Source: Cenococcum geophilum
Lineage: Eukaryota
NCBI GenBank assembly: GCA_050273025.1
Contig: CP158635.1
Location: 15,066,001-15,130,000 of the forward strand
Length of the DNA: 64,000 nt
Reading direction: 5' to 3'
Part shown: positions 17,961 through 30,713 of the stretch, piece by piece
Position numbering within the stretch: position 1 is the first letter of the stretch
Layout of the letters: every line of letters begins with the position of its first letter
Translations under genes and position numbers: made by a program
Notes under the pieces: generated by a model
Databases searched by the model: none
What the model saw: only the letters and a program-made list of their open reading frames with translations
What the model was told of the DNA's origin: nothing

Positions 17961-20479
17961 TAGAGCTCCACCTAACAGTCGAATATGTAGAATCTTATAG
18001 TATAGTACTAGTTTCTTAATAAGAGGTCTATATAAAATAGATTAAGGTTCTAGCCGCCTTATAGCTTTTTAAAAAGAGCAGCTTTATAATTACTCGTTCC
18101 TTTCTTAATAATATATATACAGCTTTTATAAGGTGACAGGCTCCGCACCACCCAGCCACGGTATAAACCCCAAAAGGTAAGCGAGTGACTGGCAAGATGC
18201 CAGGCACGGCGGCTATGCGGAACAATATATATAGTTGTCTTAGCATGCTTAGACTATATAGGAGGCCGGATAAATCCGGCCCGATGGCACTAAACCAGTT
18301 TAGGCTATCTGTCCCTGTGTAGTCTAAGACACTTTAGCAGACGTTTATAAAGCACGCCGCGATATCTATATGGCTGATATTACGGATATTTACTTCTTAT
18401 TCTTACGATAAGTTTAGGCAGCTTAAAAAATCTATTAATTATATACTAGGCTCCGGCAAATTAAATAGTCTATATAAAAAGTCTCCCCGCCTTCCCATTC
18501 CTAACATTAATTTTAAAATAGCTGTAACGCGGTTTACTAAAGTAAATAATTAGCAATATCCGCACCAATAATGCGTTAATCTTAACTACCCACTCTCTAT
18601 CTATTATATCCATAATCTAATAATTAAAACCTATTAAGATCTATCTATTATAACGTATTTAAGTCCTCCTTACCTTTATCTAACCCTCTATTCTCCCTTT
18701 ACTACTTTTAAACGCTATTTACTAATACCTCTATTAAAGTAAATAAGGTAAAGAGGTTATAAACTATAAGCCAGTTAAGCAGATTAATAAGCTAGTAGTA
18801 TGTAATAGGCTAGGGATTATATTAAAATAGATCTCTAGCTATCTCTATAGCTATATAGCCTATAAAGGGAGCTACCTTAGCTTATAAGCAGCTTTTATAA
18901 ACTTTAAATAAGTAAGCTAGATAAAGCTATTACGGAGATATATCTATACTACGGTTATACGGAGCAGCTTAAGGCCCTAAGGGTGCTAATATTTAAGCGG
19001 CGAGATCTTATACTTATAGCAAAGACGTCTTTTAGTAAGAGTATAATAATATAAGTACTACTATGTCTTATACCTAATACAGTTATTATTATTATTCTTT
19101 TACTTAACGCGATTAGGTTAGAGCAAGTAAAAAAGATTATAAAGCTACCTTATGTTCGACCTATTTATATATAGGAGAAAATAATATCCGCTAAGCTAAT
19201 TAAGGATATCCGCACAGGCAGCTATATATATATCCTTATCTCCCTAGAGCTTTTAGTTAGTAATAAGCTATATAAGGTTCTAATAGACCCAATATTTCGT
19301 TCCTATATTACCCTTATAGTAGTTAATAAAGTATACCTACTTACTAATTAGGGAGAGACCTTCCGTATAGCGTATATATAACTCTTTAAAGTATGTTTAG
19401 TCTTAGTTAATAAGCCTTAGTTTATATATACCGCAACACTAGACCTATCTACGTTTTAGACTATATATAAGCTAGCTAGGTTTAAACCTAATATATAAGT
19501 TATTAAAACCCTAATTAATTGGCCGGAGCTAAAGATTATATAGAGGGTTATAACCGCGCTAGAGAAAAAGGACTTTTAAACTCTTTACTTTACTATTGCT
19601 GCTGCTCTAGTATATTTATATACTGCTAGTAATAATAATTAAGGAGAAGGTAAGTAATTAAGAAGCCACTTAATATCCGTATAGTAGATATACCGCTAAT
19701 AGTTTAATTAACTTCAGCTAATTCTAAAGATAATCATCTTCTTTAATTCTAAAGAGTGGATAGCTGCCTATTGTAATACTATTCGCAGCTAGTTAATCTA
19801 TCGCGGCTATAATGCTGCTATTACTAAAGAAGCGGTGTAGAGCTACTATATAACGCTTACGGATATTAATAAAGACCGCTTATACGCCAAATACGCGCGC
19901 CCAACGTCTTAAATTCGAATTTTTATTATATTAGATGCAGTAACATACGGTATAGATATCCCAGATATCTACCGTTTAATCTAATATAGAATACCTCGCC
20001 ATAAATCCTATAATATGCTGATATAGCGGTTTAGCTAGGCAGGCCAAGGAGAAGGCCTCTTAGGCGAAGCAATCTTTATAGTTAAGAGCCGCTAATAGGG
20101 TCCTTGCGATAAATTAGGTAGTTTTAAGTATACACAACCTTAGTGTAAAGGCGATCTTCGCGTAAGCGCGCTGCGTAATAATATCTGCGGGCGATAAAAC
20201 GTAGAGACTGCGGATATTACGGGCGATACTTTATCTATAGCGTTAGTTAGTACTAAGCAGTTGGTAGATATAAGAAGCGGGCGTAGGTTAAGCCCTAGTA
20301 GTTCTATAGCACGCCTACCTAAAGAGCTTATTATACTAACCCTACGCCTAAAAAAGCGGTTAACTAATGCGCAGTTATATAGTAAACTACCATTCACCCT
20401 ATAGCAGCTAGTTAATAAGGATTAGGTATACTTATAAGCAATATAACTTATACACTATAGAGACCCACAGTCTACTATT

Positions 20480-20704
20480 TGTTACGGCACTGGCAGAAAG
20501 CGGCAGCTATGGTAGACGTTATAGTAGACGCAGGGCTTACGTGACTCTTACGTGACTAGGGATTGTATATAACTCCTCGCGTTGCTACTTATCCTTTCCT
20601 TTCCTTTTCTCTAGCTTTAGATTCTCGTTTATAGACAATCCAATCGTACAGGCTTACGCGACCCTTTTGCCGTGCTTATGTCTCGATTGACTAAGTCGCT
20701 AATA
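20480..20704 (+). repeat. 5' LTR
   Basis: Direct repeat of 26156-26380. Confidence 0.95.
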
Positions 20705-27399: not shown

Positions 27400-30288
27400 A
27401 TATACTAGTGCTACTAACTATAGCGGATATTAAATAGTTATAGTAATAGCTTATAGCTAATATCTTATATTACTTATTAAGTAACTTATACGCAGGTTAA
27501 AGCTAGGTTTAAGTAAAGTTGGTAGGGAGTATAAAGCTATCTAGCTTATTATTATTGTTATAGAGATTAAGCTTATTAAATATAGCGGAAAGATTACCGC
27601 CTAGCCGTAAATTAAACTCATTAAGGGCAGATTAATTAAGTCGTTTAATACCTAGTTATAGTAGAGGCGGCGCTTCTATCTTTACTTGCCGTACCTAATA
27701 ATAGATAATAAAACCTTTGGCAATTGTATTAGTAAGCAATTAAATATTTGCTACAGGAGATTTAACAGTATATTAAGTAGACATCCGTTCGCCGAATATA
27801 ATCTTAAACTTTACACGTAGTAGCCCTATATAATTAGTTATATAAATACTCTAGCGGAAGAGTAAGTCTAGGTTAAATGTTAAATTGCCATAAGTGTATA
27901 TAAGCTGCTTTAGCTCCCTATTAAGTAGCTTATTGTCAAGATCTATTGGGTAATAACTATCCTATTTACCGCGGATATTTACTAGACTATTTACTAGGAT
28001 AGCTTACTAGAGCTTAGGGGAACAAGCATCTATTAAAGTTAACTAGAAAAAACGTAATATTTCTAGTAGATAGTTCTTATTTTAACTACCTATAAAATAG
28101 GTATAAATGTAGGGGAGTATATAGCTAAGCAGACTAATATCCGCAAGCTTAATGGCGTGCTTAAGGACCTTATATATCTCTACTAGTTATAAAAAGCGGA
28201 CATGCGTTAAAAACTCTGTATTAGTAGGCTTAAAAAGTGTTTATAAGGATATAGTACTACCAGCCTACTTAAGGTAACCCTTTTACTATAGTTCCGTAAG
28301 CTAGCTAGTATAGTTAGCCGCCTAAGAGACTTCCTAACCAAAAACCGCTATGCAGATATTCTTAACTACTACTAATAGACGTTGCGGAGATAGGCTTTTA
28401 AGGTACCGCTTAATATCTATAGGCGATTTAGTATTATAAGACTCCTTAATCTAAGTATAGAGTAACGCTATAATACAAGCGTTAAAGCTATAGAGAATTA
28501 GCTCCTCTATATAATAAAATAGCGCGCGCTTGGCTAGGATATTTCTTTAACCTAGGTGGTTTATATAGGTATACAGCATAGAGTACTCTTAGGCTAATTG
28601 CTTGCTACTATAGTAATACCGTATAACTATATATAGGTAGTTTAGCTTTAGGTGCTAAAGAGCTAAAATAAGTAAAGCCTAACGCAGGCTATTATAGGCG
28701 GATATTAACTTAGTACGTTCTCCCTAATATAACCAAATAAGCTTTACGGTCTTTTAATTACCATAGATTAGAAACAGTCGCTCCTTAAATACTTTATTGG
28801 TATGTTATAGATTTATTTAATAAAGAAAAATATCGTCTAGTACCTTATAGGTTTTAGATATAAAAGCCTCTTTAGTTATAATAGGTTCTAGGTTAAACCT
28901 AGACGTTTATATAGCGGGTATTACATTAATAGAAGGTATACGTAATGTTTAAACCGTAGGTTTTTGCTAAGTAATATATTAAGGCCTAGGTACACCTCTA
29001 TAATGGCTTTATAAATTAAAGCTATTAAGATCTACTTTTATATCTCGTTTTATAAATTACCTAAAGCCTCTACAATATCCAAAAACTTAATTAAAATATC
29101 CACACAAAGCATGCTCTATTAAAGCCTACTATTAGGTATACTTATACTAAAGATAAGCTTACTAGTTATGCGCGAATAGAACGTCCTAGTATCCTTAAGT
29201 ATTTAATACTAAACTCGTTAGAGGTAGTTAAAGTTATTATAGACAATAATAGTATTAGAAGCTGCACCTATTAAGCGGATTTTTACCTATATATAGGTTA
29301 GTATATACCTGCACCGCGGAGATTATAGGCTAAACCTTAATTCCTAGGCTATCCGCTCCTTCTGCTAGTTTAAAATAGTATAACTATTAATTAATCTAAG
29401 CCTATAGAGCATAGAAAGCACGCGGCGCTTAACGCCGTTAGCTTAAAGATATATCCCTAGCAGCTATAGGATATAGTTTATAAAGTTTTATAAAAGGCTA
29501 AATATAAGCGTAGAAGCTATTAGAACCGCACGGCCTTTATATAAAGAATATTTATATTAACCCTCTTAATATACTGTAATTATATGCTTTAGTATAGGTG
29601 CGTAAGTCTTTACGGCTTGATAGTACTGCCTAAGGTTAAGCTACTTAATATCCGCATATTAGTTAAAGCTACCAAATAGTAACTCTTTCTCCCTTAGCTC
29701 TTTAAGCTCTCCCTAAATAGTAAGAGTAATACTAGCACCCACTATACCGCGCTTCTCTATCTCTTTAGTATAAATATTTAAAATATCAGCATCCTCTAGA
29801 AGTTTATTAAGGAGCTCCCTTACTTTTTTTTTCTTTAGTACCTTGCGTAAACCTTCAGCCATTATAATCTATTTAAGCGCTAGGTCTCCTATAGACATCC
29901 GCTATAGCCTAAAACGGTTAATAATTACCTAGACCTTCTCTATAGCGGATATCTTCTTGGCGGATATTGCGGATATTATAGGTATTTTATTAACTCTTAC
30001 TTCTTTATCCTCTTAGGGATCTATATAGTTTGGTAGTAGTAAATAGGCTATTAAGGACCGCCATTAAGCTGCGGATAGCAATAGGGAAGATAATAGGGGA
30101 GATAATAGGGGAGACGATAGGGGTGGGACAAGACGGCTAATGCCCTCGGGCACTATATCCGCTGTATCTCTTAATCCTCTAGCGGTATTAGTTAATAGAG
30201 AGGGTAGTTTATTATTAAAAGCTTAAGAAGACTAGCTCCTACTAGACGAAATAGAGGGGTTTCTTTAACGCCTTTTAGATACGCCCAT
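27400..30288 (-). pseudogene. Academ-type (DUF6589-like) transposase, RIP-inactivated
   Basis: De-RIPed minus-strand frame at ~28790-28480 reads ERLFLIYGDQKTVKLIR...YDSLRWALPVSALWHLKLNYL...PFHHMEELILHSFDARI, resembling the GDQxT ... (G/A)L(F/W)H..N pattern of Academ/DUF6589 transposases. Candidate ATG at 30288; 3' end approximate. Confidence 0.7.
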
Positions 30289-30713
30289 GGCTGGCAGTTG
30301 GTTCTGGAAAATCCATTAATTAGAGAGCTGATTAAGGCAATTCTAATGTAGGTATTAACAGGATAATAGACATGGCGGTTGCTTACATTAATTTCGTTAA
30401 AGTTAATGGTTTGCCTTATATAAACAGACCAGCTTAGCTTCTAAAAGCTTGCTAAAGTGGCTCAGACCAAGAAACAGATGGATCGATCGAATAGGTTAGC
30501 TTGCGGATATTCGATTATCCGCGCAGCGGATATTCATCGGTTTCTTGGTCTGAGCATGCTGAGTCAATACATATAGGCGAGGTGACTTCGTCACCTGACA
30601 ACGGCCCTAACGTCGTCACAAATATCTTTTATCTATTTTTTAAAAGTAAACCCTTTTTATTACTGCCGGAAATATATTATTTAGCGATATTTAAATAGAC
30701 AGAGACAAATTTA

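Follow-up and report, generated by a model that had tools for sequence, protein, structure and literature searches.

The question raised by a 64-kb window of the Cenococcum geophilum genome (assembly GCA_050273025.1, contig CP158635.1, positions 15,066,001 to 15,130,000 of the forward strand; all coordinates below are positions within this window) is what kind of transposable element lies between positions 18235 and 30567. An earlier note, made from the letters alone, had proposed a complete helicase-encoding transposon of the AcademH kind in an ascomycete, its genes hidden by repeat-induced point mutation (RIP). With a probability of roughly 85%, this interval appears to be a single dead copy of an AcademH-type cut-and-paste transposon with two genes, lying in a Dothideomycete genome. 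The likeness to AcademH, as that group is portrayed in the passages that cite it, lies in a DDE transposase accompanied by a separately encoded RecQ-like helicase, in terminal inverted repeats (TIRs), in a 9-bp target site duplication (TSD) and in a fungal distribution that includes Ascomycota. The element measures 6427 bp once a nested Ty3/Gypsy retrotransposon (20480-26380) is subtracted, very close to the 6.4 kb estimated before, and it is complete as had been claimed, i.e., the core pair of TIRs and the TSD are present and both genes lie inside a single TIR pair. As regards the host, the Nup82 gene of the window (51474-53060) is 92% identical to that of Glonium stellatum and 69% identical to that of Lepidopterella palustris, which points to a Dothideomycete and thus to an ascomycete of the Pezizomycotina.

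Limits and gene content of the element

The features that define the element are as follows.

18226-18234, no strand: left copy of the 9-bp TSD, TATATATAG, with one C-to-T change at CpA relative to the right copy
18235-18340, plus strand: left composite end, with the terminal block at 18235-18255, a hairpin at 18248-18328 (81 nt) and then the shared block ACACTTTAGCAG
18908-20479, plus strand: relic of a RecQ-like superfamily 2 (SF2) helicase gene in a single frame, cut by the Gypsy element at 20479/20480; similarity shown for 18908-20419
26386-27598, no strand: gap between the Gypsy element and the transposase relic, no similarity detected
27599-28945, minus strand: C-terminal part of the transposase relic, frame -1, 29 in-frame stops; Pfam DUF6589 at 27896-28936
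29056-29877, minus strand: N-terminal part of the transposase relic, frame -2, 18 in-frame stops
30449-30567, minus strand: right composite end, with the terminal block at 30547-30567, a hairpin at 30461-30554 (94 nt) and then the shared block CCACTTTAGCAA (minus-strand reading)
30568-30576, no strand: right copy of the 9-bp TSD, TACATATAG

In the whole 64-kb window, the 20-nt TIR core TTGWCTYAGCATGCTYAGAC has exactly two occurrences, one on the plus strand (18235-18254) and one on the minus strand (30548-30567), and such a pair arose in none of 100 shuffles. The terminal 21 nt of the two ends agree at 17 of 21 positions, and three of the four mismatches are C/T differences at CpA. Directly outside these termini stands the 9-bp TSD that had been described before; its two copies, TATATATAG and TACATATAG, agree at eight of nine positions, the odd one being a CpA-to-TpA change of the RIP type.

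Contigs assembled from four sequencing runs bear on these limits. In run X1, contigs start in a left-flank copy that has diverged, continue with position 30566 onward and read, letter by letter, ...GCGGAATAA, a single TACATATAG and then GCGAGG.... These contigs with only one 9-mer are the predicted empty site, which is paralogous and not allelic, since the flanks are repeated in the runs and the joint extends over only 27 nt on its shorter side. Furthermore, contigs of three of the four runs (X1, X6 and X8) join 20473 to 26380 with six ambiguous letters; they represent host-element copies that lack the Gypsy insert, and they confirm both the limits of the latter and the unity of the two arms. 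No further copies of the element were found inside the window.

The gene content was assessed by a Pfam scan of 12 read-through frames of the window, in which stops were read as X; ten of these frames gave no match at all. One minus-strand frame matched DUF6589 with an E value of 4.1e-30 and a score of 105 bits, where the cut-off is 27, so that the convergent minus-strand DUF6589-like relic on which the earlier note had staked its proposal was recovered. When compared with 1.84 billion representative proteins, the transposase relic gave 400 matches at E <= 1e-3, the best of which was 40% identical (E 7.7e-82), and named homologues of DUF6589 come from six genera of Pezizomycotina: Penicillium, Geoglossum, Sclerophora, Ascosphaera, Microthyrium and Dactylonectria. 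Puccinia, sought among the distant DUF6589 matches, was not named in 20 clusters, from which five names were obtained, all of Pezizomycotina and Microthyrium among them; this is no evidence of its absence.

The C-terminal part of the relic (27599-28945) retains two catalytic blocks, GDQ (read here as GNX) and D-x3-E-x6-K. The reading frame of the relic as a whole changes between 29056 and 28945. The window copy has probably lost 1 nt there, because an additional G stands behind 28944 in copies seen in the sequencing runs. An intron was considered as the cause of the frame change and rejected; there is no extra DNA between the two parts, and the other copies have just one more G at 28944.

The plus-strand relic of a RecQ-type helicase gene, also anticipated in the earlier note, contains 27 in-frame TAA or TAG stops between 18908 and 20419, and the gene probably began near 18680. 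Among solved structures, the first 13 rows matched by this relic are all WRN (best E 8.9e-6). Moreover, tblastn with helicases borne by related elements covers 18908-20419 in one frame with E values down to 2.5e-45, the lowest being obtained with the helicase of locus L008; when the intact L008 protein is itself compared with the PDB, the 37 leading rows are all members of the RecQ family (best E 1.8e-20). Past the Gypsy insert, no similarity to seven intact helicases was found in 26386-27598. This interval presumably holds a poorly conserved C-terminus of the helicase and a short intergenic gap, because the helicases of intact relatives are 727-957 amino acids long.

Intact relatives of the element

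Since the window copy is dead, no part of it being still able to function, its original organization is best read from relatives. When metagenome contigs from soil and roots were scanned with aligned intact homologues, 80 loci were obtained. Twelve of the 13 large open reading frames (ORFs) tested next to the transposase proved to be helicases matching Helicase_C, and seven of these twelve match DEAD as well. A convergent helicase match was present in 20 of the 29 loci that have at least 2.5 kb after the transposase; the other nine are L051 and eight contigs that look mutated by RIP. Three intact compact elements of 5.96-6.30 kb (L003, L021 and L023) have the same layout as the window element, which is thus the compact two-gene form, and a size of about 6 kb is common among the relatives. 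With intact transposases of about 830-950 amino acids and helicases of the lengths given above, the living element would have been approximately 6.4 kb long, with two convergent genes that encoded a DDE transposase and a RecQ-like SF2 helicase.

The earlier note had further expected that other copies would share the termini and the 9-bp TSD, which holds in part. The terminal motif TT-NN-CTCAG-N3-5-CTCAG-RCC stands at the expected place in 31 of the 80 loci (compare, for example, the end of L020, TTACCTCAGCATGCTCAGACC, with that of the window, TTGACTCAGCATGCTCAGACC), and perfect 9-bp TSDs flank L077 (189-9592; GCGTGTTAA) and L064 (6408-17309, with both genes inside; CGCAGCTGC). No TSD is seen in two other relatives, L021 and L003, which are considered below. 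Right ends were also sought in twelve long loci by aligning the left end, and a convincing partner was obtained only in L064.

Besides the compact form, there are larger relatives of 9.4-10.9 kb (L039, L059, L064, L065 and others), which share with the window element the transposase, the helicase, the hairpin, the 9-bp TSD and an end that is about 68-70% alike over some 190 nt. Approximately 190 nt of the right end of the window element can be aligned, at 67-71%, to the termini of six loci (L039, L060, L063, L065, L067 and L070). In the larger relatives, the transposase and helicase genes are separated by two small ORFs that form a duplicated pair (L039:3499-6607), seen in 14-15 loci; one ORF of the pair has seven cysteines in 156-162 amino acids. 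The middle gene of these larger relatives has no match inside the window element at E <= 1.

These findings do not favour the suggestion that the locus might represent an undescribed, compact, short-TIR lineage of Pezizomycotina. The family is widespread, with six genera of Pezizomycotina and 80 metagenome loci, the compact size is common, and the TIR is a composite with a hairpin. In addition, AcademH is recorded from Basidiomycota, Ascomycota and Mucoromycota in a passage of PMC10799480 that cites Kojima 2020, and the relevant passage of PMC5751038 describes Academ in fungi as "low copy, in most taxa", with no Pfam model in 2017. The type of element is therefore already known and hence ordinary, and its hairpin-bearing ends are its sole less familiar feature.

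Hairpin-bearing ends

The TIR pair of about 22 bp that had been reported at the two termini is present, but as a description of the ends it falls short; each end is a composite of some 105-120 nt, in which the inverted repeat continues beyond a plain short TIR and encloses a hairpin. Past each hairpin, towards the interior of the element, there is a second block common to both ends, CACTTTAGCA, which less mutated relatives read as ACTTTGGCGA. Folded as DNA, the left end reaches -21.4 kcal/mol (z -4.5), and none of 200 shuffles was as good; the right end reaches -31.8 kcal/mol (z -7.1), better than all 200 shuffles.

The base of the stem is formed by the second CTCAG block (CTCAGRCC) and its own reverse complement 41-96 nt further inward, which leaves a loop of 40-95 nt. 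Such a partner, with at most one mismatch in eight positions, is found in 36 of 44 ends (42 from the loci and two from the window), compared with an expectation by chance, from our own calculation, of about two in 44. The stem continues inward from this base. Over the next 12 nt, in 25 distinct ends, an arm forms on average 7.4 of 12 possible pairs with its own partner and 3.5 of 12 with the partners of other ends; the stem arms of these 25 ends differ from each other at 8.4 of 12 positions. Stem pairing is kept while the sequence varies, both between ends and between subfamilies. The two ends of the window illustrate this, since their stems are unlike and each is nonetheless paired (TATATAGG with CCTGTGTA on the left, CAAGAAAC with GTTTCTTG on the right). 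By title and abstract, a literature search that combined Academ with hairpin, helicase and transposon returned nothing relevant.

At two loci, a right and a left terminus of family members stand tail to head with only 7 nt (L010:4577-4625) or 12 nt (L065:1182-1235) between them. This could reflect tandem insertion, a repeat assembly artefact or a junction of joined ends.

Fold, catalytic residues and probable assignment to AcademH

The nature of the DUF6589 protein was approached through an AlphaFold (AF2) model of P0020, an intact relative of 834 residues, built from an alignment of 50 sequences. The model has a mean predicted local distance difference test (pLDDT) score of 80.7 and a predicted template modelling (pTM) score of 0.81. 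Its first 40 rows in VIA-align are all DDE transposases or recombinases, including the P element (Z 9.0, root-mean-square deviation 7.0, 371 aligned), ISCth4 (7.9), Hermes (7.7), RAG1 (6.8) and Transib (6.7). In the model, D290 (of DNFD) is part of strand 1, D453 (of GDQ) follows closely on strand 4 and E698 belongs to a helix, i.e., the near-invariant residues are placed as an RNase H-like core would lead one to expect. The DUF6589 transposase is predicted to fold in the manner of RNase H and to contain a large insertion made up of helices.

The likeness to the P element, hAT (Hermes), RAG1/Transib and IS256-type (ISCth4) transposases is one of fold only, since their sequences are 8-12% identical to that of the model and they lack a helicase. 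The TSD is 8 bp long for P and hAT elements and 5 bp for Transib, whereas 9 bp are found in the window, L077 and L064, so that neither hAT nor the P element accounts for these elements.

The closest agreement is with Academ. The published RNase_H_Academ hidden Markov model (HMM; supplement of PMC5751038) was compared by eye with the DUF6589 relatives over the consensus letters of about 95 of its 465 nodes. Within these, nodes 3-6 read D-N-w/f-D where the relatives have DNFD, nodes 22-26 read h-v-t-n-g where they have H/S-x-T-T-G, nodes 190-192 read g-d-q where they have GDQ, and nodes 450-462 read D-x3-E-x7-K where they have D-x3-E-x6-K. The four blocks follow in the same order and at similar spacing. 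Moreover, the second aspartate was forecast from the spacing in the relatives to lie near node 181 and was found at node 191. In a passage of PMC10045372, TSDs of 9-10 bp are ascribed to AcademH and of 3-4 bp to AcademX, as the earlier note had stated for the former. Within what the citing passages tell of the described families, all the features tested (helicase, TSD, TIRs and catalytic motifs) are consistent with membership in AcademH, and the "AcademH-like" label given by the earlier note fits with respect to TSD length, helicase pairing and the catalytic motifs compared.

This reading has practical consequences for annotation. The Pfam family DUF6589, labelled as being of "unknown function", is best read as an Academ-type DDE transposase, and genes that carry it should not be counted as host genes. 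One preprint considers DUF6589 a possible virulence factor, and it does not tie the domain to Academ.

It might be argued that elements with DUF6589 and a helicase form a superfamily of their own that works like AcademH but stands outside Academ, the shared motifs being owed to the DDE scaffold or to very old descent. The Academ comparison is unscored, no literature connecting DUF6589 with Academ was found (the supplements of PMC10799480, for example, contain neither PF20231 nor DUF6589 nor Academ), and the best structural match is the P element transposase, there being no Academ structure with which to compare. Nonetheless, agreement with the Academ profile, over the nodes compared, in the identity, order and rough spacing of four blocks, a second aspartate found ten nodes from its forecast place, and the combination of an accessory helicase with a 9-bp TSD, two features that are cited as marks of AcademH, make such a separate superfamily improbable.

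Several points weigh against assignment to AcademH or against the integrity of the element on which it is based. What links the family to Academ is an unscored comparison, made by eye, of the consensus letters of four HMM blocks. A Foldseek search of the PDB gave no match at E <= 1e-3, the best rows being the P element transposase (2.3e-3), RAG1 and Hermes, and a Z score of 9 is only moderate for a model of 834 residues. The HMMER check that had been advised for both relics, carried out with stops read as X, succeeded for DUF6589, but on the plus-strand frame Helicase_C (19727-20002) reached E 0.005 and 17.5 bits, below its curated cut-off of 23.5. One TIR mismatch, at position 4 (T vs. A), is not of the RIP type. 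The joint of the empty site in run X1 is short, as mentioned above, and lies in a flank that is itself repeated. Finally, no TSD is seen in two of the four relatives that have both ends and flanking sequence, namely L021 (8 nt of left flank) and L003 (158 nt), each of which is a short contig from a metagenome.

Some of these points might suggest unrelated relics that lie side by side, with a TIR and TSD matched by chance in AT-rich DNA, or a larger element that includes the flanks; DNA mutated by RIP is of low complexity, the TSD is AT-rich and the flanks are repeated in the sequencing runs. However, the same gene pair recurs in relatives, the terminal motif is found in 31 loci and the hairpin in 36 of 44 ends, a TIR core pair is expected zero times by chance, and both a paralogous empty site with one 9-mer and Gypsy-free copies exist, which together render this explanation very improbable.

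KolobokH, the other fungal lineage of transposons with a RecQ-like helicase within their TIRs, which the earlier note had named for comparison, has next to no chance of being the answer, because Kolobok elements, as described in a passage of PMC9587614, have a TTAA-specific 4-bp TSD, 5'-RR...YY-3' termini and (in KolobokH) a helicase that is situated downstream from the transposase domain, whereas the window element has the 9-bp TSD TACATATAG without TTAA, termini TT...AA and a helicase in a separate gene on the opposite strand that converges on the transposase.

Possible role of the helicase

If the element is of the AcademH kind, its mobility may be pictured as follows. The transposase would bind the conserved ends (TT-NN-CTCAG-N3-5-CTCAG-RCC) and excise the element, and insertion with cuts staggered by 9 bp would then produce the 9-bp duplication. 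As a best guess, the helicase would be an accessory protein that opens or remodels the palindromic subterminal DNA or, alternatively, aids gap repair. The roles given here to the helicase and to the hairpin are pure inference, and this too counts against the picture as a whole.

Nonetheless, a conserved and covarying hairpin at each end of a transposon that carries a helicase suggests a role for the latter. At the ends of this family, the conserved palindrome lies directly inside the cleavage-proximal motif. A more far-reaching idea, tentative and rather unlikely, is that transposition requires a structured end (hairpin or cruciform) and that the RecQ-like helicase of the element exists to extrude or resolve it. 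If true, this would explain the presence of a helicase in AcademH, and the step would be one that is not known from descriptions of DDE transposons in eukaryotes. The family-wide end, with two CTCAG blocks and a hairpin whose stem covaries, offers a concrete substrate for probing the AcademH helicase. The locus itself is of little import, being a copy that is dead and mutated by RIP and that belongs to an already known kind.

Nested retrotransposon, RIP and history of the locus

The insert that separates the two arms of the element has the following features.

20475-20479, no strand: left TSD of the Gypsy element, CTATT
20480-26380, plus strand: RIP-mutated Ty3/Gypsy long terminal repeat (LTR) retrotransposon, with LTRs at 20480-20704 and 26156-26380
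23306-23773 (approximately), plus strand: reverse transcriptase domain
23972-24355 (approximately), plus strand: RNase H domain
24710-24874 (approximately), plus strand: integrase zinc domain
25595-25774 (approximately), plus strand: SH3 domain
26381-26385, no strand: right TSD of the Gypsy element, CTATT

The LTRs are 96% alike over 229 nt; the Gypsy element starts with TGTTAC and, at the close of its 3' LTR, ends in ...AACA. The domains RVT_1, RNase H (RT_RNaseH), Integrase_H2C2 and SH3_Tf2-1 follow each other in one frame and in this order. Direct LTRs, a 5-bp TSD and a pol order of reverse transcriptase, RNase H and integrase identify the insert as Ty3/Gypsy, as the earlier note had recognized.

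That RIP has hidden the genes of the element is equally well supported. The whole stretch from 18.2 to 30.6 kb is rich in AT and bears a strong mark of RIP. TA/AT ratios are 1.63-1.67 in the arms of the element compared with 0.93-0.95 in the flanks, and (CA+TG)/(AC+GT) ratios are 0.44-0.45 compared with 1.12-1.14. The three relic segments contain 74 in-frame stops, every one of them TAA or TAG; 65 of these can be aligned, and at 28 of the 65 positions an intact relative has Q, W or R. In addition, contigs of the sequencing runs differ from the window almost exclusively by transitions, and at the best-supported differences, T or A in the window corresponds to C or G in the majority of copies, which is what a RIP-mutated member of a multi-copy family should show.

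The following history would account for the locus. The element would first have inserted into a short repeated sequence, a setting indicated by the repeated flanks; a Ty3/Gypsy element would then have landed in the 3' part of the helicase gene; RIP would have mutated the whole composite; and a 1-nt deletion would have shifted the frame of the transposase. The locus may be regarded as a textbook case of the growth of an AT-rich island, in which a DNA transposon is struck by a Gypsy element and then by RIP.

Further observations on the sequencing runs and the window

The Gypsy sequence (20579-26326) is extremely abundant in all four sequencing runs, with a summed depth about 10-30x that of the transposon arms. 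The flanks at 17226-18225 and 30577-31576 reach a summed contig depth of approximately 20-120x that of contigs with zero differences, and in one paralogue of the target region in run X1, 13 nt (ATACATATAGGCG) are missing exactly where the target site lies. In the same run, lone contigs join 19981 to 30228 and 20479 to 29964, skipping most of the interior, with 28 nt on the shorter side; they hint at internally deleted, non-autonomous copies of the family.

About 280 nt to the left of the element there are two hairpin modules within 17648-17951. The arms of the first are 80 nt long, 96% complementary and separated by 7 nt (17785-17864 and 17872-17951), and those of the second are 41 nt long and 85% complementary (17648-17688 and 17741-17781). 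These modules look like small palindromic repeats or miniature inverted-repeat transposable elements.

Further to the left, the segment at 11422-13452 is open in three frames on both strands, with ORFs of 676, 638 and 613 amino acids, and the C-terminal tail of the L039 helicase, which is of low complexity, matches it weakly and repeatedly at several places; the segment probably represents a simple or tandem repeat.

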